The notes under the pieces: model-generated
What the model saw: the letters and a program-made list of their open reading frames with translations, nothing else
What the model was told of the DNA's origin: nothing
Databases searched by the model: none
Shown here: positions 6,264-26,498 of the stretch, one piece after another
How positions within the stretch are numbered: the stretch's first letter is position 1
Layout: every line of letters begins with the position of its first letter
Source: Candidatus Wallbacteria bacterium
Lineage (GTDB): Bacteria > Muiribacteriota > UBA9980
DNA: 46,847 nt
Direction of reading: 5' to 3'
NCBI GenBank assembly: GCA_041441465.1
Contig: JASDSY010000034.1
Span: 1 to 46,847, forward strand
Made by a program: the position numbers and the translations under genes

Positions 6264-7337
6264 TTAGTTACTCAAAAAACCGGCTTTTACCTTTTGCTCT
6301 ATTTGCCTGAATATTTGTTCATTCTGCTTGAGAAAACATTTTATATTTTCTCGGCCCTGGCCGATTCTTTCTTTGTCGAAGCTATACCACGCGCCGTTTT
6401 TTTCGATTACGCCCTGGGCCAGCGCGAGTTCTATCATGTCGGCTTCGGCTGAAAACCCTTCATTGAACATAAGATCCAACTCGGCTGATTTGAAAGGCAT
6501 TGCGCATTTATTTTTTGTGACTTTGACCCGGACTTTTATGCCGGCCGGCGTTTCTGCGTTTTTTATTACCTCGATTTTTCTTACTTCAAGCCTTATGGAT
6601 GAAAAAAATTTTAATGCGCGTCCGCCCGGCGTAGTTTCTGAATTTCCGAACATTACTCCGATTTTATCTCTGAGCTGATTTATGAATATTACAGTGCAGT
6701 TATTATTAGCTGCCAGGGAGGTTATGCGCCTCAATCCGGAAGCCATTAATCTCGCTTGAAGCCCTATTTGCATTTCATTCATTGTGGCCTCGATTTCAGC
6801 TCTGGGAACTAGCGCAGCGACCGAATCGATTACGATTAATTTAATTATTCCGCTTTTTATAAGGGCGGAACAGATTTCAAAGCTTTCTTCGCCGCTTCCG
6901 GGCTGTGATATTAAAAGGTTTTGAGTCTGGATGCCGATTTTCTTGGCTAATTTTATATCGAGCGCATGTTCTGCGTCGATAAATGCCGCCACGCCGCCGT
7001 TCATCTGATAATTTGCGATAATGTTAAGCGTTAAAGTCGTTTTGCCGGAAGATTCAGGGCCGTATATTTCTATTATCCTGCCGCACGGTATTCCGCCGAT
7101 TCCTAATGCCGCGTCTAACGATAATAATCCGGTGGAAATCGCATCGATATTTTCGGATGCCGCGTTATCGCAATCGTCGCTGAATATTGTGCCAGCACCG
7201 AATTTCTTTATCATTTGCTGCTTTAAGCCGTTCAGGCTTTCTGAGTTTAAAGCTTTAGGCGAATCCTCGAAAGCTGTCGGCCGTTCTGTAATGTTATTTT
7301 TTTCGTTTTTCCTGGTTTTCACTTTTTCGTTTTCCAT
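6264..7337 (-). CDS. recA: Recombinase RecA
   Basis: GRIIEIYGPESSGKTTLTL Walker A. Aligns along its full length with RecA. About 40-aa low-complexity N-terminal extension. GGGGAGG ribosome-binding site. Confidence 0.95.
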   Translation of the reverse strand: MENEKVKTRKNEKNNITERPTAFEDSPKALNSESLNGLKQQMIKKFGAGTIFSDDCDNAASENIDAISTGLLSLDAALGIGGIPCGRIIEIYGPESSGKTTLTLNIIANYQMNGGVAAFIDAEHALDIKLAKKIGIQTQNLLISQPGSGEESFEICSALIKSGIIKLIVIDSVAALVPRAEIEATMNEMQIGLQARLMASGLRRITSLAANNNCTVIFINQLRDKIGVMFGNSETTPGGRALKFFSSIRLEVRKIEVIKNAETPAGIKVRVKVTKNKCAMPFKSAELDLMFNEGFSAEADMIELALAQGVIEKNGAWYSFDKERIGQGRENIKCFLKQNEQIFRQIEQKVKAGFLSN

Positions 7338-7444
7338 TTAAAACCTCCCCTAAATTTAGATTTTATAGTTTTGAGAATTGCTATATAAAAAAATCAATAA
7401 TAAGTGAAATGGTTTCCTTTAATTGCTTTTTTATGATATCCATT

Positions 7445-8047
7445 TTAATAAGCGATAAAATATTTTTTTAATGTCTGGATTCTTTTGGTGCCAATTCCGC
7501 CAATGGATGTGAGTTCGTCGATTTTCTGGATTCTATTTCCGTTTTTTTGCCTGTATTCGATTATCTTAATACCAATCTTTTCGCCGAGGCCTTTGATTTT
7601 TTTAAACTGATTGATGTCAGCCAAATTTATGTCGATGCGCGGATTTTCAGATTCACCGGAATTGTTTAATTCGTCAGGATTTGAAAGATCAGGCGTTAAA
7701 TCGCCAGAAACATAAATTTTATCCTTGATTTTTTCATACATTCTTGGACCTATTCCGCTGATTTTCCTTAATTCGCATTTTGTCCGGAATTCGCCGGCTT
7801 CTTCACGGTATTTTATTATTCTTTCGGCCAGGCCGCTCCCGATTCCCGGGATTAATGACATTTCTTCGGCTGTAGCATCGTTCAGGCTCAATGGAAATTC
7901 AATTACGGCGATATTTTTTGAGTTGTATGGACCGTCGCCCGCCCATACCTTATTTTCAAAAAATACGTTTGCGAATATTCCGAATAATAAGACTCCGATT
8001 AAAAATAATGACATTAAACGGTTGTTTTTACTTTTTGTTTCTTTCAT
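7445..8047 (-). CDS. comEA: Competence protein ComEA (helix-hairpin-helix DNA receptor)
   Basis: N-terminal transmembrane anchor. Two HhH repeats (LNDATAEEMSLIPGIGSGLAERII ; LNNS..INLADINQFKKIKGLGEKIGIKIIEYR). GGAGG ribosome-binding site. Confidence 0.85.
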   Translation of the reverse strand: MKETKSKNNRLMSLFLIGVLLFGIFANVFFENKVWAGDGPYNSKNIAVIEFPLSLNDATAEEMSLIPGIGSGLAERIIKYREEAGEFRTKCELRKISGIGPRMYEKIKDKIYVSGDLTPDLSNPDELNNSGESENPRIDINLADINQFKKIKGLGEKIGIKIIEYRQKNGNRIQKIDELTSIGGIGTKRIQTLKKYFIAY

Positions 8048-9387: not shown

Positions 9388-10599
9388 GTGCGAATTTCAA
9401 AAAAAATGATATCAAATAATAGTGAAACAATAAACAATAAAAATTCAAAAATTAAATTATGGCAAAATGGCGCGGCTGTAAAAATAACGAACGGCGAATT
9501 AGCTGGAAATGTGGCTAAAAATGGCGTTGTCGCAACCATCGGCGGCGCCGGAATGACGCCGGAGCAATTAAAACGCGAAATGCAGATTGCCCGTGAAATT
9601 TCTCCGGACGGTGAAATTGGCGTTAATCTTATGTACGTCGCCAAGGAATTTCATGACGCCGCTATTGCCGCTCAAGAAGCCGGCGCTAACTTTATTGTCC
9701 TTGCCGCGGGTTATGATTCGAATGTTTTGAACTCAACCGGCGATTACGAAGACATAAAGATAGAACTTATACCTAAAGTTGCGCACCCGACGCTTGCGTT
9801 GCGTGTATTTCAAACCGGTATAGTCAAAAGAATAATTCTCGAAGGTTCGGGCTGCGGCGGTCACATAGGGTACAGCTCGATTAAAAACTTTATACCTGTT
9901 GAAAAACTTGTAAAATTAACGGCCGATAGATTCAAAAGCCATATTGCGGCACATGCGCTGGGAAAAAATGTTCCTCAATCAGAGCTTGATGCTTTCTTAA
10001 AAGAGCTTTCAGATAACAGGGAAGAGTATCGTAAAAAATATCATGTCCCTGAATTGATAGCTGCCGGCGGTATCAATGAATCGAATTTTCAACAGGTAAT
10101 CGATAACGGCGCAAGCTACCTTGGAAGCTGCTTGATTTATACTATTTCAAAAGAATCTAACGCGCACGATAATTGGAAAAAAATGCAGTTTGAAACTAAA
10201 AATCGCATTTTTTTCGAAAGCCCTGTAAAAGGTATGATAGGCTCCGCTATTAAAAATAAATTTATCGAAAAATATTTTGAGCTCGATGACGAAGGCATTT
10301 ATCGATTTAAGGCTACTGCCAAGCAAAATGCCGTGCACGGCACCAATATAAAATCCGATTTTATTGATCGTTGCAATGTCGAATGTATGGCGAATAATTT
10401 TTGCCTTAAGTATTCCAAAGAATACCGTCACCCTATGTGTATTTATTTCAGGCTGGAAGAGGCGGCTGTCGTCGGAAATGTCGATGACGGTATAGTCTTT
10501 ACTTCTGAAAACTTCAGTTATATTCAAAAAGTTGCGCGTCCTAATATCAGCGTTAAAGAAATCGTCGATATAATCAAAAAATACACCTATGGCGCTTAA
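9388..10599 (+). CDS. NMO/FabK-family FMN oxidoreductase (nitronate monooxygenase / enoyl-reductase-like) with Cys-containing C-terminal extension
   Basis: Motifs ..ILEGSGCGGHIG.. (like EAGGH) and ..LIAAGGI.. are characteristic of the 2-nitropropane dioxygenase/FabK TIM-barrel family. An extra about 130-aa C-terminal region (CNVECMANNFC...HPMC). Starts 2 nt after the upstream stop; the ATG at 9406 is an alternative start. Confidence 0.65.
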   Translation: MRISKKMISNNSETINNKNSKIKLWQNGAAVKITNGELAGNVAKNGVVATIGGAGMTPEQLKREMQIAREISPDGEIGVNLMYVAKEFHDAAIAAQEAGANFIVLAAGYDSNVLNSTGDYEDIKIELIPKVAHPTLALRVFQTGIVKRIILEGSGCGGHIGYSSIKNFIPVEKLVKLTADRFKSHIAAHALGKNVPQSELDAFLKELSDNREEYRKKYHVPELIAAGGINESNFQQVIDNGASYLGSCLIYTISKESNAHDNWKKMQFETKNRIFFESPVKGMIGSAIKNKFIEKYFELDDEGIYRFKATAKQNAVHGTNIKSDFIDRCNVECMANNFCLKYSKEYRHPMCIYFRLEEAAVVGNVDDGIVFTSENFSYIQKVARPNISVKEIVDIIKKYTYGA

Positions 10600-10770: not shown

Positions 10771-12417
10771 TTAGAAAGGGAAATCGTTTGTATTATTTTT
10801 CAGCTGTTTATCGGCGTTAATTTCGCGCGGGTCTTTAGCTTTACCCTGTTTTTTTAACGGCATAACTTTTATAGGCTTATGTTCGCCGTGAACAGGGCAG
10901 GCATGCTGGCAGATGCCGCAGCCGATGCAGTATGGTTTTCTGATTTTAGGAACGAAAATGTCGCCGAGTTTTTCCATGTAAACTGCGCCGGTCGGGCAAT
11001 GTTCGGCGCATGCACCGCAGTCCTGATGATTTTTATATGCGACACATTCTGTGTTTGTGCCGGTATTAAGTTCGACAATTCCTATTTTTATGAGCTTTTT
11101 TTGTTCGATATCGTGGTATTTGATCGCCTGATTGGGGCATATCGATGAACACATATTGCATTCAAATTCGCAGTACGATTTATTATAGTCCAGTTTAGGT
11201 TTTGACAGGCCAATAATGCCGTTTTCAAATCCTGACGGTACAAGCACTTTTGACGGACAGACCGATATGCATAAATGACAGGCTGAACAGTTATTAAAAA
11301 ATTCCTGCGGAGTCCCGGCGCCGGGCGGCATTATAGTTTTTATTTCCAGTGTCTCGGGCTGAGCAATTGCTTTCAGTGAATATGGAATGAGCGTTCCTGC
11401 TATTACTGTGAAAGATGTTGTCAGAAATTTCCGCCTTGACCCGGAAATTTTGTGATTGACGTTTTTTTCGGTTTCGTTATTGATTTCGGATTTTTGAGAT
11501 GGTTCTTGAGCGGTGTTTATATTGTCAACTTCATTATAATCCGATTTACGGCAGATAGTTTGGCTCGGCGTGTTTTGGGCGGCTGAAGAACCGCGGCTTA
11601 TATTTAAAGCGCCAAATGTACACTTGCCGACACATTCGTAACATGAAACACAGAGGTTTTTATCTATGATTCCGTTATTTATGCAGTAAGCCGGGCATAT
11701 TTTCGCGCATTGTCCGCAATTTACGCAATTTTCGTTGACTTTTATATTAATAAATGAATTTTGGGCGATCATGCCGTAAATGGCGCCGGATGGACACAAA
11801 GTATTGCAATACCAACGTGGCCTGAGCGCTGCCGCGACCACTAACATCAAAAGAAAAAGCGAGGCGTATAAAAACTCAAAGGAGGTGGATTTTAATTCGC
11901 TTATCTGGAAATTGGATGTTTTATTCAAATACTCCGAAAACGGCGATAATAATTTTATGAAAATCGGCTGGATAAAATCGGTTAAAATACGGCCGAAATT
12001 ACTTGAATGATCGAGCCAGCCCCATATAAAAATTCCAAATGCGGCTGAGGCTAGGCATGTGATGAAAAGAAGCAGCCTGAAGTATTTATAAAATGCCGGG
12101 GCCGCTTTTTTTATTTTTAATTTTGTGCCTATCGCTGCCGCAAGGTCCTGGATAAATCCGACCGGGCATAAATAACTGCAGTATAGGCGGCCGGCGCTAA
12201 AAGTTAAAATTATAAGTAAAATCGTCACTATTATAAACTTTGTATAAACATAAGAATTAATTCCGGCAGTTACCGGAAATATATGCAGCGCGCCCCAGAA
12301 AAGCAGACAGGATGAAGACGTTATAAATCTCAAAAAAATTAAAACAGCGAAAATAAAAAAAATAGACTGTGTTAATTTTCTAAAAAACCATAATTTGGAT
12401 TTTTTCATATATTTCAC
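10771..12417 (-). CDS. Membrane polyferredoxin: NapH/MauN-like N-terminal half fused to a NapG/MauM-like four-cluster ferredoxin half
   Basis: 548 aa. N-terminal transmembrane region with two CX3CP motifs (CSYLCPVGF, CNTLCPSGA) plus CVNCGQCAKICP and CVSCYECVGKC. An internal twin-arginine motif GSRRKFLTTSFTVIAGTLI is followed by four further Cys clusters (CSACHLCISVCP, CNMCSSICP, CGACAEHCP, CIGCGICQHACP). Confidence 0.8.
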   Translation of the reverse strand: MKYMKKSKLWFFRKLTQSIFFIFAVLIFLRFITSSSCLLFWGALHIFPVTAGINSYVYTKFIIVTILLIILTFSAGRLYCSYLCPVGFIQDLAAAIGTKLKIKKAAPAFYKYFRLLLFITCLASAAFGIFIWGWLDHSSNFGRILTDFIQPIFIKLLSPFSEYLNKTSNFQISELKSTSFEFLYASLFLLMLVVAAALRPRWYCNTLCPSGAIYGMIAQNSFINIKVNENCVNCGQCAKICPAYCINNGIIDKNLCVSCYECVGKCTFGALNISRGSSAAQNTPSQTICRKSDYNEVDNINTAQEPSQKSEINNETEKNVNHKISGSRRKFLTTSFTVIAGTLIPYSLKAIAQPETLEIKTIMPPGAGTPQEFFNNCSACHLCISVCPSKVLVPSGFENGIIGLSKPKLDYNKSYCEFECNMCSSICPNQAIKYHDIEQKKLIKIGIVELNTGTNTECVAYKNHQDCGACAEHCPTGAVYMEKLGDIFVPKIRKPYCIGCGICQHACPVHGEHKPIKVMPLKKQGKAKDPREINADKQLKNNTNDFPF

Positions 12418-12628
12418 TTTCTATGCTTAAATTGACAAGTAGTTATTACCTGTTTAATAAATGAAAATTTTTCACCGAATACTATTGCTGTTAATAATAT
12501 ATTCATATTGCGTTCGGGCTATCTTGGGTAATAGATTTAATTGGCCATATTCGCAGTGCGCCTGTAAAAGTGCCTGTAACAAGCGTAAATGCCTGATTCT
12601 GCCCGAAGTGCAATAATGTATAAAGTTT

Positions 12629-13543
12629 TTAAAGAGTGACTTTATTTATTTTTAGTTTATCGATTGCCATGGTGCCTATGCCAAGATCCTGGGCAAATTT
12701 CAGGTAATTGATTCCGGCCGGGTCGAATTCAAGGATTTTAGCAGCCGCGGTGTCGGCTGCGACCATGTCGGTTGCGATTATTTGCATTCTTTTAGAGGCT
12801 ATATCGGCTTTTGATATGCCGCGCGGGCCGTTTTTAAACATTACATTAAAAGCGTCAATTACAGTTAAATCCGGTTTTCTGATTAAAGGGAAATCAGCGA
12901 TGCACTGGTGCAATCCTTTGTTATGGTAAAAGTCCCTGTTCCATACCACGCCCATAAGATTTTTTAAAGAAGACGTCATTTGTGAACTGCCGTGGTGTTT
13001 TAAGACAGGGACGTTTATTATGACGTCTGAATCAAGGTAAAGCTCATGGATCATAGCATTTTTTAAAATTTTAGAATTGTTTATTTCTTTTTTACGATAG
13101 CTTTCTTTTTTGTTTCCGGAAACTATGGTGCCGCCGGCGCCGATTACGGCTTTTTCTATGCCGCTTAAATTGTAGCAATCCTTCCAGTTATTGCATGTGT
13201 TGTCAAAAACATATACTTTTTTTGCGCCTTCTTTTAGCGCTAATTCGACTATTTTGGCGACAAGATCGGGCTGCGTGTTAGCGCCTTCCGCCGGCGTGCG
13301 CGCCCAGCCGATGTTCGGCTTTACAAGGACAATCTGGCCTTTTTTTACGAATCTTGACATGCCGCCGATTTCTGCGATGCCTTTTTCAAACATTTGTGCC
13401 GGCGTACCGTTTCGCAGTGCGACCATGTCAGGTTCGGAAGCTTTTTTTTCGTCAGCGAAAAGTAAATTTGAAAAGCCGCCCATGGCAAGAGTCAAGCCGG
13501 CTCCGACTCCAAGTTTTATAAAATTACGCCTGGTTATATTCAT
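12629..13543 (-). CDS. Tat-exported DUF362-family protein
   Basis: N-terminal twin-arginine signal MNITRRNFIKLGVGAGLTLAMGG. The core (..GQIVLVKPNIGWA..) resembles DUF362 proteins, which are often found with Fe-S proteins. Confidence 0.6.
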   Translation of the reverse strand: MNITRRNFIKLGVGAGLTLAMGGFSNLLFADEKKASEPDMVALRNGTPAQMFEKGIAEIGGMSRFVKKGQIVLVKPNIGWARTPAEGANTQPDLVAKIVELALKEGAKKVYVFDNTCNNWKDCYNLSGIEKAVIGAGGTIVSGNKKESYRKKEINNSKILKNAMIHELYLDSDVIINVPVLKHHGSSQMTSSLKNLMGVVWNRDFYHNKGLHQCIADFPLIRKPDLTVIDAFNVMFKNGPRGISKADIASKRMQIIATDMVAADTAAAKILEFDPAGINYLKFAQDLGIGTMAIDKLKINKVTL

Positions 13544-13587
13544 AATTTAAACCTCCGCTATTTTTATTTTTTGTGTTACATTATACA

Positions 13588-13628
13588 AAAAAACACGGAG
13601 AATGACAATGATTCTCCGTGTTTTTTAT
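13588..13628. terminator. Rho-independent terminator after mazG
   Basis: CACGGAGAAT-(7 nt)-ATTCTCCGTG followed by TTTTTT. Confidence 0.7.
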
Positions 13629-23585: not shown

Positions 23586-26498
23586 TTATTTTTGAGTGTT
23601 TTTATCGCTTGTTTTTGTTGAAGTTGTGGTTGTACCGCTCTGGCCTGAAACATATGCTTCGTATTCATTGAATGCCTGTTTGTATTCTTGTAAAGCCTGC
23701 TGGCCTTCTGCGGATTCACCCTTGCCTTCAGCAAGTAACTGCGCGTATTTCTGATATGCCGCTTTCATCTTTTCCTGAAGTTGTTTTACGTTATCCGTAC
23801 CCGATGAATTTTTATCAGCTACTACATCGGTATTGCCGGTAACGGTGGTATTATTTTTATCGGTTGTCTGTTCGACGTCGCCGGTTGAAGCCTGCGGTGT
23901 TACGTTGATAGTTGCGCCTGTGCCTGTAACTCTGATGCTTGTCTGTTCATTTGTCGATTTTTTACCGCGGATTAACTCTACGACTTTACCGCCTATGAAG
24001 TTACCTACGATACCGCCTATCATCGAACCTATGCCAGGTAATAACATCGAACCTAATGTAGCGCCTATCGTCGAACCGATTGCGCGTCCGGCAAGGTCGG
24101 CTTTGTCTATTGCGGCCCATGCTTTCTTGAATGAAGGTTTGTTGCCTGCCGCGATATCGTTACCCATCTGACCGCCTATAGCGCCGCCTGCCATCGAGAA
24201 TACTGTCGGCATTAATGCGCCTATTACAGGACCTACTACCGGGATTGTCGATGCGAATGTGCCTACGAACGCACCGGCTGCCGAACCAAGGCCGGAACCT
24301 ACAAATGAGCCTACATATTCGCCTGAAGCGAGGTACGATACTGCTTTTCCTATGTTAACCGGTTCGCCTTTTACAACCTGGTCTACTATCTTGAAGCCTA
24401 CTGTTAAGCCAGCTGAAAGTGCGACATTTTTTACTGAGAATGATTCTTTTAAAGCTGTGCCTGCTGCTTTACCGGCTGCCGTTGTGGTTTCTTTACCCCA
24501 TTTATAGCCTTTTTCATAAGCCTCTGAATGTTTGCCGCCTGGTTTTGGTTTCGCGTTCTGATCGCCGTTTGCTGAAGCGGTCGTGCCGTCATCGGCGCCA
24601 GCGGCAGGTGCTGATGTACCATCATCTGTCGATGCTGATGCCGGCTTAGGATTTGTGCCGTCAGCGTCAGCCTGTGAGTTAGGTTTCGGGTTTGTACCGT
24701 CATCCGAACTAGCAGCCGGAGTTGATGTACCGTCATCTGTCGATGCTGATGTCGGCTTAGGATTTGTGCCGTCAGCGTCGCCTGTACCTGTTGCAGCAGA
24801 AGGCTGACCGCCGTTTTCTGCCGTTGCAGGCGCCTGATTTGATGATGTAGGTTTGTTATTGCTTGCAGTTGAACTTGAAGCCGGTGTACCGTCAACATCG
24901 CCGGTTGAACTAGGTTTCGGGCTGTTATTGCCGGCTGCCGGTGTACCGTCTAAATCGCCTGAAGCGGTTGTGCCGCCGTTGCCTGAAGCGCTGCCGGAAT
25001 TATTCGAAGGTGTTGAAGCAGGAACGCCGTCATCTGTCGAAACAGGCGTTGAATTATTTGAAGGTGTCGAGTTAGATGCTGTATTTGAGCCAGCCGGAGT
25101 TGATGATGAAGCCGGCGTTGAGCTTGTCGAACCTGTTGTTGATGCAGCTGCCGGTGTTTCAGGAGCGGTGCCGCCTACACCAGTTGCTGATGAAGCGCTT
25201 CCGGAATTAGCTGCCGGTGTGCTTGATGATGCTGTGTTTGAGCCGGTTGAAGCCGCAGGAGTTGATGACGAAGCAGCCGGTGTGCTGCCTGCAGTCTGCG
25301 GTGCCGGTGAAGTTGCGGCATTGCCTGCGCCTGTTGCAGGGCTTGGGCCGTTATTGTTTATTATCGTGATCTGACGTCTGTCGATGATTGTTACTTTATT
25401 GTTCGAATCGCGTATTACAGTTGTTTTATTATTTGAGCGCGCTGTGTTTGTGGTATTGGTCGTATTTGTGGTGTTGCCTGAATTTGTATTTGTAACAGTG
25501 TTTGTGTTTGATGTATTTCCTGCATTTTCGATTCTTGATGACGATGATGTATTTCCTGAGCGGGAAATATTACTTGAAGTTGATGATGTTGTTGACGAAT
25601 CGGTAGCGATACGTGTCGAATTACCTGAATTAGCAACTTTGCTTGAGTTCGAACTTGAAGTTGAAAGAGTATTGCCCGAATCGGTAATTCTTGATGTCGC
25701 TGAGTTCGAAGTTGATGTTGTAACATTTTTTGTTGAAATTGCGACATCAGTGTCCGCGATGCGTGTCGATGTCGAGGTAGTTGTATTCGTCTTCGATGAA
25801 GTTGTGCTTGTTACAGGTTTATTGACGACCGATGTGTTGTTGGTATTGCTGTTGCTTGTATTTGAAGCCGATACTGTCGTTGTCTGTTTAGGAGCCGGTA
25901 ATGCTAAAGTTTCCTTAGGGGCTGGCAATGCCAGTGTTTCTTTAGGAGCCGGCAGGGCTAACTGCTGCTTAGGAGCTGGAAGCGCCAATGTTTCTTTAGG
26001 AGCCGGTAATGCTAACTGTTGTTTTGCGGCTGTTGTCGAAGCAGAAGATGAGCTTGCCGAAGCGGTGCTTGGCGTTGCAGTCGAGGTGGCGGCAGCCGGA
26101 GTCGATGAAGTAGCAGCAGAAGTTGCCGAAGTTGAAGCGGTTGAAGAACCGTCGGCGAATTTCCAGGTTTTAAACAAACCGTTTGAATCGCGGACTACTG
26201 TTCTGGCGCGCCCATCGCTCCAGGTTTCCGTTGTAACTTTTCCCCAAGATACAAAATGTCCGTTAGCGTCGCGCACAACCCAGCGCTGTACGCCGTCAGC
26301 CCATGTTTCCATCGAACCTGTACCGAATGTAGTGTTTTGCCCTTTAGGCGTGCTGACATTCCATACTTCTTTTGCGGCGGTAGCGGTAACGCTTGCTGAA
26401 GCCTGAGCTATAGCCGGCGCAAATATCGATGTGAAAAAGCTGAATATTAAATATACTATAAATATCTTTTTTAACATCGAGCGTTTCATAATAATCAC
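23586..26498 (-). CDS. Large secreted Ser/Thr/Ala/Asn-rich repetitive protein with C-terminal glycine-zipper membrane-interacting domain
   Basis: 970 aa. Signal peptide. Duplicated N-terminal module (ETWADGVQRWVVRDANGHFVSW / ETWSDGRARTVVRDSNGLFKTW). Five copies of LALPAPK(E/Q)(T/Q) from 27-nt DNA repeats. Two copies of a 37-aa DADGTNPKP unit. About 700 aa of low complexity. C-terminal GxxxG-rich block and coiled coil. AAGGATAGGTGA ribosome-binding site. Confidence 0.8.
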   Translation of the reverse strand: MIIMKRSMLKKIFIVYLIFSFFTSIFAPAIAQASASVTATAAKEVWNVSTPKGQNTTFGTGSMETWADGVQRWVVRDANGHFVSWGKVTTETWSDGRARTVVRDSNGLFKTWKFADGSSTASTSATSAATSSTPAAATSTATPSTASASSSSASTTAAKQQLALPAPKETLALPAPKQQLALPAPKETLALPAPKETLALPAPKQTTTVSASNTSNSNTNNTSVVNKPVTSTTSSKTNTTTSTSTRIADTDVAISTKNVTTSTSNSATSRITDSGNTLSTSSSNSSKVANSGNSTRIATDSSTTSSTSSNISRSGNTSSSSRIENAGNTSNTNTVTNTNSGNTTNTTNTTNTARSNNKTTVIRDSNNKVTIIDRRQITIINNNGPSPATGAGNAATSPAPQTAGSTPAASSSTPAASTGSNTASSSTPAANSGSASSATGVGGTAPETPAAASTTGSTSSTPASSSTPAGSNTASNSTPSNNSTPVSTDDGVPASTPSNNSGSASGNGGTTASGDLDGTPAAGNNSPKPSSTGDVDGTPASSSTASNNKPTSSNQAPATAENGGQPSAATGTGDADGTNPKPTSASTDDGTSTPAASSDDGTNPKPNSQADADGTNPKPASASTDDGTSAPAAGADDGTTASANGDQNAKPKPGGKHSEAYEKGYKWGKETTTAAGKAAGTALKESFSVKNVALSAGLTVGFKIVDQVVKGEPVNIGKAVSYLASGEYVGSFVGSGLGSAAGAFVGTFASTIPVVGPVIGALMPTVFSMAGGAIGGQMGNDIAAGNKPSFKKAWAAIDKADLAGRAIGSTIGATLGSMLLPGIGSMIGGIVGNFIGGKVVELIRGKKSTNEQTSIRVTGTGATINVTPQASTGDVEQTTDKNNTTVTGNTDVVADKNSSGTDNVKQLQEKMKAAYQKYAQLLAEGKGESAEGQQALQEYKQAFNEYEAYVSGQSGTTTTSTKTSDKNTQK

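Follow-up and report, generated by a model that had tools for sequence, protein, structure and literature searches.

A conserved DUF362–polyferredoxin gene pair from Candidatus Wallbacteria: predicted LarA-like fold and a possible link to nickel-pincer chemistry

The stretch of DNA analysed here, called the window, covers 46,847 nucleotides of contig JASDSY010000034.1 from a Candidatus Wallbacteria bacterium. Two neighbouring genes on its minus strand encode a protein of the DUF362 family, predicted to be exported by the twin-arginine translocation (Tat) system, and a membrane-bound polyferredoxin (PFD). The two genes recur together as a conserved module, the modelled DUF362 protein has the fold of LarA, an enzyme dependent on the nickel-pincer nucleotide (NPN), and genes for making NPN adjoin the module in some other genomes. 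We hold with moderate confidence that the pair is a self-contained extracytoplasmic redox module, in which an exported, probably NPN-dependent oxidoreductase is electronically coupled to the membrane. The genes lie as follows.

12629..13543, minus strand: DUF362 gene, first gene of the module, 304 residues; product predicted to be Tat-exported and LarA-like in fold
12418..12628, minus strand: intergenic spacer of 211 bp between the DUF362 and PFD genes
10771..12417, minus strand: PFD gene, 548 residues from a GTG start; NapH-like and NapG-like parts fused

Both open reading frames (ORFs) lie where the earlier note had placed them, as a direct check showed, and the rechecked coordinates put the PFD gene downstream of the DUF362 gene. 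For the PFD, an ATG start at 12408 giving 545 residues is likelier than the GTG; a 99%-identical database protein (P0001) has 545 residues. No terminator-like site was found on the coding strand within the spacer, so the two genes are likely co-transcribed.

The pairing of the two genes is widely kept. The genome scan, seeded with the PFD and limited to one genome per species, found fused PFD homologues at 80 loci, drawn from many phyla. A DUF362 gene lies directly upstream of the PFD gene and in the same direction in 69 of them; four of the remaining 11 lie at contig edges. An independent metagenome scan, seeded with DUF362, showed a PFD gene directly downstream in 63 of the 66 loci with room for one. 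The paired loci span Bacteroidota, Ignavibacteriota, Planctomycetota, Verrucomicrobiota, Desulfobacterota, Lentisphaerota, Spirochaetia, Riflebacteria and others, and in most orthologous loci the two genes overlap or are 0–20 bp apart. All-against-all clustering of the neighbours revealed no third broadly conserved gene. DUF362 and PFD are a conserved two-gene module, and these counts bear out the view of the earlier note that DUF362 is the exported partner of the PFD. A 778-residue protein (P0363), considered as a fusion of PFD with DUF362, was rejected; its N-terminus is an unrelated membrane protein.

The carboxyl terminus of the PFD follows the identity of the partner.

10774..10797, minus strand: PFD C-terminal tail, residues 541–548, ending D-F-P-F; candidate DUF362-docking peptide

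Every PFD in the alignment (A1) ends with [D/E/G]-F-[P/G]-F, F546 and F548 being invariant. In the 80 genome loci, F-[P/G/A]-F directly before the stop codon occurs in 69 of 69 PFDs partnered by DUF362 and in none of the four partnered by a different protein (Fisher p ~1e-6), which end about 10 residues past the last cluster. The tail is also retained in all seven PFDs of these loci without a visible partner, and in 51 of 52 complete metagenome PFDs. It is disordered in the AlphaFold2 (AF2) model of the monomer. The tail is thus likely to be a docking peptide for DUF362. Three distant DUF362 proteins (P0459, P0465 and P0385) consist of a Tat signal, the DUF362 part, a linker rich in Pro, Ala and Glu, and a C-terminal transmembrane (TM) anchor; these variants may stay membrane-bound without a PFD tail.

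The different partner occurs in four Bacteroidales loci of the Prevotella type. Here the place of DUF362 is taken by an aldo-keto reductase (AKR) with a Tat signal and a lipobox, fused to a 4Fe-4S dicluster domain (AKR-Fer4).

L074:9482-10885, L041:7592-8998, L079:1434-2843 and L072:2902-4281: AKR-Fer4 genes

In L074 the tatC gene (7218-7970) adjoins the PFD gene. Since AKR-Fer4 stands in for DUF362 in these four loci, the PFD behaves like a modular wire in the membrane, serving different redox enzymes exported by Tat.

The DUF362 protein belongs clearly to its family, with 161.4 bits against Pfam PF04015 (cutoff 24) over positions 1–200 of the 200-position profile. The family is large, with 9,904 representative clusters at E<=1e-3. 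The sequence begins MNITRRNFIKLG, and the following parts are distinguished.

13454..13543, minus strand: Tat signal peptide of DUF362, residues 1–30 (MNITRRNFIKLGVGAGLTLAMGGFSNLLFA, then DE), from the sequence as read and the motif in orthologues
12893..13027, minus strand: putative cofactor or active-site segment, residues 173–217, with D173, N177, K182, H184, K194, N195, R203 and H207, from conservation

The N-terminus reads T-R-R-N-F-I-K-L, followed by GVGAGLTLAMGGFSNLLFA and then DE, so that the twin-arginine motif, the hydrophobic region and an A-x-A-like site are all present. The Pfam TAT_signal model gives 17.2 bits, under its cutoff of 22.7. The Tat signal reported by the earlier note stands on the motif itself and on an M-x-RR-x-F start in nearly all orthologues. 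Residues 13–34 are disordered in the AF2 model.

Structure prediction gave a confident model for DUF362 (predicted local distance difference test score, pLDDT, 90.1; predicted template-modelling score, pTM, 0.85). A Foldseek search of the Protein Data Bank (PDB) with this model returned 18 significant matches, all of them LarA or LarA homologues. At the level of the modelled fold, DUF362 is shown to be a truncated LarA-type enzyme. DUF362 and the LarA N-domain share the Pfam clan CL0471, and the Pfam DUF362 hidden Markov model (HMM) scores 23–26 bits on authentic LarA (gathering score 24), over LarA residues 82–245. By sequence, as a single query or as a profile, DUF362 retrieved nothing relevant among PDB chains. 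The family has been used in the literature as an outgroup of LarA, with no functional study, and DUF362 domains often occur in proteins that also bear Fe-S-binding domains (PMC5742341). No experimental function for DUF362 was found in the searchable literature. The earlier remark that the family has no assigned chemistry agrees with that literature, but the fold and the gene context described below point to nickel-pincer chemistry.

Conservation was measured over 133 DUF362 representatives that are mutually at most 50% identical. Residues K75-P-N77, D173, N177, K182, H184, K194-N195, R203, H207, D230 and D264 are at least 90% conserved. The cysteines are less so: Cys117, Cys123 and Cys214 are conserved at 34–47% and position 102 at 82%. 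An intrinsic Fe-S cluster in DUF362 was judged unlikely, as the cysteines are poorly conserved and position 102 is an alanine here. Residue 102 (window 13238-13240) is a cysteine in 82–95% of the family and an alanine in the Wallbacteria protein; Cys117, Cys123 and Cys214 are conserved only inside the close DUF362 subfamily.

To place the conserved residues on LarA, L. plantarum LarA and ten divergent homologues from annotated plasmids were used as references. The LarA series D163...H174-x9-K184 matches D173...H184-x9-K194 of DUF362 without a gap. In a profile–profile diagonal scan, the register pairing H184 with His174 and K194 with Lys184 was the best diagonal at three window sizes (z=2.4 versus shuffles). 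hhalign with diverse profiles on both sides gave a collinear alignment of 165 columns with the same equivalences (E=0.07). The best hmmsearch domain pairs H207 with the equivalent of His200 in a LarA homologue, and the spacing agrees. The Pfam profile coordinates demand near-collinearity with an offset of -7 to -10. The HMM of the DUF362 subfamily did not reach LarA, and hhalign with a diverse LarA profile and a narrow DUF362 profile chose an unrelated short segment. These alignments, each weak, combined with a fold match that is certain, favour H184 as the counterpart of the catalytic His174, K194 as that of the NPN-tethering Lys184 and H207 as that of the nickel ligand His200.

The gene context leads to the same chemistry. 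In six of the 80 genome loci, from three phyla, larC, larB or larE adjoins the module or the PFD gene, and the products score above the cutoffs of the NCBIfam equivalogs. In the metagenomes, larC adjoins the module in 22 of 80 loci, or in 14 of the 40 with at least 3 kb upstream. Overall, lar genes are adjacent in about 28 loci, in at least three phyla and at least four gene arrangements. In a planctomycete (L080) the larC gene lies directly upstream of DUF362. In three Bacteroidota a divergent lar operon abuts the module, with the order larC-larB in L059 and L051 and with larE between them in L039. The last gene of this divergent operon is WbqC-like (PF08889; L059:3964-4587, L039:3162-3791 and L051:4147-4785). 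One metagenome locus (L147) has DUF362-PFD-larE-larB-larC on one strand. In two metagenome-assembled gammaproteobacterial genomes larC directly follows the PFD gene, and in L008 larE and larB are also present (L008:7704-12304; L046:1672-4489). No DUF362 gene was found in the fetched region of these two; the F-P-F tail on their PFDs predicts a DUF362 partner encoded elsewhere. As controls, the neighbouring genes for tRNA-guanine transglycosylase, LptFG, the S component of an energy-coupling factor (ECF) transporter and a phosphoribosyltransferase (with one exception) occur in Bacteroidota only; LarC occurs in three phyla. No paper combining lar genes with a polyferredoxin was found in the searchable literature. 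Gene context and fold together suggest that DUF362 is involved in nickel-pincer chemistry, a link absent from that literature.

The use of NPN outside LarA has a precedent. Adjacency of larBCE led to the NPN-dependent aldo-keto reductases NphT (PDB 9YEB), in which His144 binds nickel and Lys200 is the tether; before NphT, LarA was the only fold shown to tether NPN covalently (Semersky et al. 2026, Nat Chem). The present proposal shares with NphT the idea of NPN use beyond LarA, traceable by larBCE adjacency. NphT is a TIM barrel, unlike DUF362, and no Fe-S partner is described for it; the paper does not mention DUF362, ferredoxin, the periplasm or the twin-arginine motif. AKR-Fer4 matches 9YEB with E=1.9e-12 and has an invariant S-F-H213 where canonical AKRs are shown without the histidine (e.g. 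S-N-F). Counting from the alignment end (profile 220 = 9YEB 151) places H213 at NphT His144. Plain 331-residue AKRs found as neighbours were set aside as ordinary perakine-reductase-like NAD(P)H enzymes. A C. butyricum plasmid (NZ_CP053375.1; L082:5995-12604) carries larB-larC-larE followed by an ECF transporter of the Co/Ni type and an aldo/keto reductase, without larA. This arrangement fits the discovery logic of NphT; the lar-linked AKR had no match to 9YEB at E<=1e-8, giving no bridge to NphT.

The PFD consists of four parts in front of its tail.

11593..12417, minus strand: NapH-like membrane core, residues 1–275, from hydropathy, motifs, NapH HMMs, Pfam Fer4_5 and AF2 helices
11443..11592, minus strand: variable low-complexity linker, residues 276–325, placed in the cytoplasm, from alignment A1 and pLDDT <50 at 281–325
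11365..11442, minus strand: candidate internal Tat signal-anchor, residues 326–351, with S-R-R-K-F-L, the weakly hydrophobic transmembrane domain 5 (TMD5; TSFTVIAGTLIPYSL) and K349, from the AF2 helix, hydropathy and conservation
10798..11364, minus strand: NapG-like domain, residues 352–540, placed in the periplasm, from the NapG HMM, the invariant PPG motif and the Cys columns

The core has four strongly hydrophobic segments at about residues 17–40, 58–76, 113–134 and 183–199, CX3CP motifs at 80–85 and 204–209, and ferredoxin motifs CX2CX2CX3C at 231–241 and 256–266. The C-terminal half has four Cys clusters at 377, 416, 458/467 and 497, and these Cys columns are invariant in the alignment. 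A script thus recovered all the anatomy that the earlier note had described: four TM segments, two CX3CP motifs, two 4Fe-4S motifs and four C-terminal Cys clusters. By analogy with the NapH topology cited in PMC5449189, the core is predicted to have four TM helices of the general secretory (Sec) type, with its CX3CP motifs and two Cys clusters facing the cytoplasm; the N-terminus and loops rich in K and R would likewise place the N-terminus inside. The linker bears an extra insertion of about 35 residues rich in N, E, S, Q and K, which only P0043 shares among 27 aligned homologues.

The NapH and NapG models match opposite halves of the protein, upholding the fusion proposed by the earlier note. 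The N-terminal half scores 83.6 bits with NCBIfam NapH (cutoff 234) and 78.8 bits with the napH subfamily (cutoff 213). The C-terminal half scores 64.5 bits with NCBIfam NapG (cutoff 269; E=7.9e-18), residues 322–529 matching profile positions 5–217, and 45.4 bits with the mauM_napG subfamily (cutoff 179; E=6.7e-12). The NapG match begins at position 5, within the signal-peptide region of NapG. The C-terminal half is therefore NapG-like, at a score below the cutoff. A bona fide NapGH identity was rejected, as the scores of both HMMs are far under their cutoffs and there is no nap context; neither napA nor another nap gene was present among the 24 window ORFs scanned. Foldseek gave no significant match for the PFD model in the PDB because structures of NapH and NapG do not exist. 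PFD homologues number 714 at E<=1e-10; of the 120 that were listed, almost every one is a full-length fusion. The alternative of split genes or a sequencing frameshift, which the earlier note had raised, is not borne out; with hundreds of full-length fused homologues such an artefact was excluded.

The likeness to NapGH (E. coli, Wolinella succinogenes) and MauM/MauN lies in the two domain types and in the presumed logic, a membrane Fe-S protein with a Tat-exported four-cluster ferredoxin feeding a periplasmic enzyme. The window PFD differs in that both are fused in one polypeptide, the scores are far below the cutoffs, and no napA/napB or mau context is present. The client of NapGH is a molybdoenzyme; that of the PFD is a protein modelled with a LarA fold.

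The motif S-R-R-K-F-L at residues 326–331 directly precedes the weakly hydrophobic stretch. The earlier note took it for a relic of the napH-napG fusion, possibly now a transmembrane helix. The helix is supported, since AF2 models residues 326–351 as one continuous helix of 26 residues after a disordered linker (281–325); the relic status is not. This architecture has already been published: a genome search for proteins in which an even number of TM segments precedes an RR motif and a further helix yielded the "polytopic polyferredoxin" family, explicitly termed a NapH-NapG fusion (Tooke et al. 2017, eLife 6:e26577, PMC5449189). In the family member from delta proteobacterium MLMS-1 (Q1NSB0), periplasmic export of reporters placed after TMD5 needed Tat and the RR pair, and the hand-over from Sec to Tat depends on low TMD5 hydrophobicity and on positive charges after TMD5 (PMC5449189). 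Residues 1–364 of Q1NSB0 were taken from the supplement of that paper for comparison. By BLASTP the window PFD is 30% identical to it over 194 residues (E=2e-15; Q1NSB0 82–273), with the same order of motifs. The two share the NapH-like core, the internal RR, the weak TMD5 and the four-motif NapG-like C-terminal domain. They are distantly related; Q1NSB0 is described with three cytoplasmic clusters, as against two ferredoxin-type motifs in the window PFD, whose linker is longer and whose TMD5 is directly followed by a single Lys. DUF362, the C-terminal F-P-F tail and lar genes are absent from the text of Tooke et al. By its sequence, the window PFD appears to be an ordinary member of this published dual Sec/Tat class, whose RR motif is already explained, and Tat- and RR-dependent export of its own C-terminal domain would follow from the behaviour of Q1NSB0.

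A non-functional relic, with the C-terminal half left in the cytoplasm or cleaved off, could be read from the weakly hydrophobic h-region, and the experimental data concern Q1NSB0. On the Hessa scale TMD5 sums to +6.4, as against -1.6 to 0.0 for TM1–4; this is a simple position-independent scale, not the dGpred server of the paper. Such weak hydrophobicity is a mechanistic need of the Sec-to-Tat hand-over rather than decay, and Q1NSB0 requires Tat and the RR for export. Among the 120 listed homologues (at only 28–44% identity), 109 retain [RK]R followed by the NapG-type PPG motif within 75 residues. In 96% of these 109, TMD5 is less hydrophobic than TM1, and in 96% a K or R stands at its C-terminal end. 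The second Arg of the motif is at least 90% conserved in alignment A1, and the first position is R or K. The partner of the PFD is itself periplasmic. The relic reading is largely refuted, and we give it almost no credence. Conservation of [RK]R, of a weakly hydrophobic TMD5 and of the K/R beside it indicates that the internal RR and TMD5 form a working Tat signal-anchor under purifying selection.

The proposed mechanism joins these elements. Sec would insert TM1–4 of the PFD, with the CX3CP motifs and the two [4Fe-4S] sites of this part on the cytoplasmic side. Tat would then handle the internal RR and TMD5, so that the folded NapG-like domain with its four clusters stands outside, anchored by TM5. 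DUF362 would be exported separately by Tat, folded and loaded with its cofactor; such a route suits cofactor loading in the cytoplasm. Outside, DUF362 may dock on the periplasmic domain of the PFD, probably through the F-P-F tail. It would most likely carry NPN made by LarB, LarC and LarE; Lys194 would then tether the cofactor, His207 coordinate its nickel and His184 serve as catalytic base. Through its Fe-S chain, the PFD could link this site to the quinone pool, as in NapGH, or to a cytoplasmic reductant. The internal hydride redox cycle that is hidden in LarA would thereby become a net oxidation or reduction of a periplasmic substrate. In a more specific form, which we offer tentatively as a possibility, Tat-exported DUF362 proteins would be the first extracytoplasmic NPN enzymes and the first case of exchange between an NPN hydride and Fe-S electrons, the PFD docking through its F-P-F tail and coupling a periplasmic substrate to the quinone pool; Tat-exported AKR-Fer4 would be a second, convergent NPN client.

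Several points weigh against NPN dependence and coupling to the membrane. The adjacency of lar genes is a minority feature, seen in seven of 74 DUF362 clusters (70% identity) from three deep lineages, and no lar, tat or nickel-transport gene was found within the 46.8-kb window. No single method gives a significant register to LarA, as the hhalign and diagonal-scan values above show. With narrow profiles (a single LarA or a set of low diversity), hhalign pointed to another lysine, K223, again below significance; K223 was rejected as the tethering residue, as it would pair a β-strand with a helix. LarA His108 aligns with N118 and Arg75 with W80, Gln295 and Lys298 are not conserved, and the LarA_C domain has no match and no equivalent length in DUF362. 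The window PFD has a single lysine (K349) near TMD5. The role of the PFD as a quinol dehydrogenase is extrapolated from NapGH despite the far sub-cutoff NapH and NapG scores. The main chemical objection is that we know of no precedent for electron transfer between NPN, which works by two-electron hydride transfer, and one-electron Fe-S clusters without a flavin. Since His108, Arg75, Gln295, Lys298 and LarA_C are not retained, the substrate of DUF362 appears not to be a 2-hydroxyacid held in the binding mode of LarA, and the protein would not be a 2-hydroxyacid racemase. DUF362 thus resembles the LarA superfamily (DUF2088/Lar_N; NPN-dependent 2-hydroxyacid racemases and epimerases) in its modelled alpha/beta fold and differs in being about 120 residues shorter, without LarA_C, His108 and the carboxylate-binding Arg75, Gln295 and Lys298. 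A further difference is its Tat export and its pairing with a protein that transfers electrons through Fe-S clusters; the LarA enzymes that have been characterised lack such a partner, and their reactions are redox-neutral.

The same architecture could serve a DUF362 that works without NPN, its LarA fold holding another cofactor or a simple metal or His-Lys site while the nearby lar genes serve another enzyme. The lar-free window, the few clusters with lar adjacency, the statistically weak register and the missing LarA_C domain and substrate residues would all suit such a protein, and no experimental data on DUF362 were found in the searchable literature. We nevertheless regard it as rather unlikely. 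The lar adjacency recurs across phyla and arrangements, and with the PFD alone; the sole significant structural relatives are NPN enzymes; the His-x9-Lys spacing is exactly that of LarA, with both residues at least 90% conserved; and an Fe-S cluster of its own is made unlikely by the poorly conserved cysteines. A different role for the PFD is that of a maintenance or activation factor, which passes reducing equivalents across the membrane to keep or restore a labile cofactor of DUF362 and is not a catalytic conduit. NosR and NosGH perform such maintenance for N2O reductase, and CcoG, a polyferredoxin-type membrane protein, is a cupric reductase. Fe-S sites of the PFD are placed on either side of the membrane, and in L008 and L046 the PFD stands in a string with lar genes (larC-larE-larB) without DUF362, resembling a maturation operon. 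The literature describes holo-LarA proteins as labile (PMC11796402). A strict 1:1 pairing, in most cases with translational coupling, and the partner-specific tail suit a stoichiometric enzyme complex better, however, and among characterised proteins the closest relative, NapGH, works as a catalytic quinol dehydrogenase. We consider maintenance improbable, and the two roles are not mutually exclusive.

The internal RR and the PFD were already known; what is new is a conserved DUF362 partner for which structure, residues and gene context point to nickel-pincer chemistry. To our knowledge, the known NPN enzymes are the LarA racemases, the NphT aldo-keto reductases and one cyclodeaminase, none with a described electron-transfer partner. 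If the NPN-dependent redox module is real, the reach of NPN extends to the periplasm and to membrane-linked electron transfer, and genomes that have larBCE and lack larA could be accounted for. The module would be a nicotinamide-free, nickel-based respiratory dehydrogenase or reductase. It ranges over Bacteroidota (including gut Parabacteroides), Akkermansia, Ignavibacteriota, Planctomycetota and candidate phyla. Abundant anaerobes of gut and sediment carry the module, so that its substrate may be of consequence for anaerobic carbon or redox metabolism. Two genes, the candidate ligands K194, H207 and H184, and a candidate docking tail offer an entry point for experiment.

Upstream of the module, two further sites were noted.

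13580..13608, minus strand: best candidate promoter (TTGTCA-17-TATAAT, 11/12), shortly before the start of the DUF362 gene, by consensus match only
13588..13626, no strand assigned: G+C-rich hairpin with A and T runs on both sides, read as an intrinsic terminator that ends the MazG-like gene upstream and bounds the module on its 5' side

The terminator of the MazG-like gene thus overlaps the best promoter-like site of DUF362. On the other side, a plus-strand ORF of 403 residues with a GTG start (9388-10599), like NMO/FabK of the nitronate monooxygenase (NMO) family, is convergent with the PFD gene, facing its 3' end; nothing suggests that the two are functionally linked.

Many Bacteroidota loci have genes for a phosphoribosyltransferase and an ECF S component upstream of the module and one for a tRNA-guanine transglycosylase downstream (L017:5798-6781, L052:3644-4774 and relatives). 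A link to queuosine was considered and rejected: these neighbours are essentially confined to Bacteroidota, the phosphoribosyltransferase having one exception in Ignavibacteria, and probably reflect synteny of the lineage.

Elsewhere in the window, a minus-strand ORF of 970 residues (23586-26498) without a Pfam match lies in the single markedly G+C-rich stretch (GC 0.49 versus about 0.36). Two long ORFs on the plus strand, 24853-25374 and 25384-26406, overlap it.

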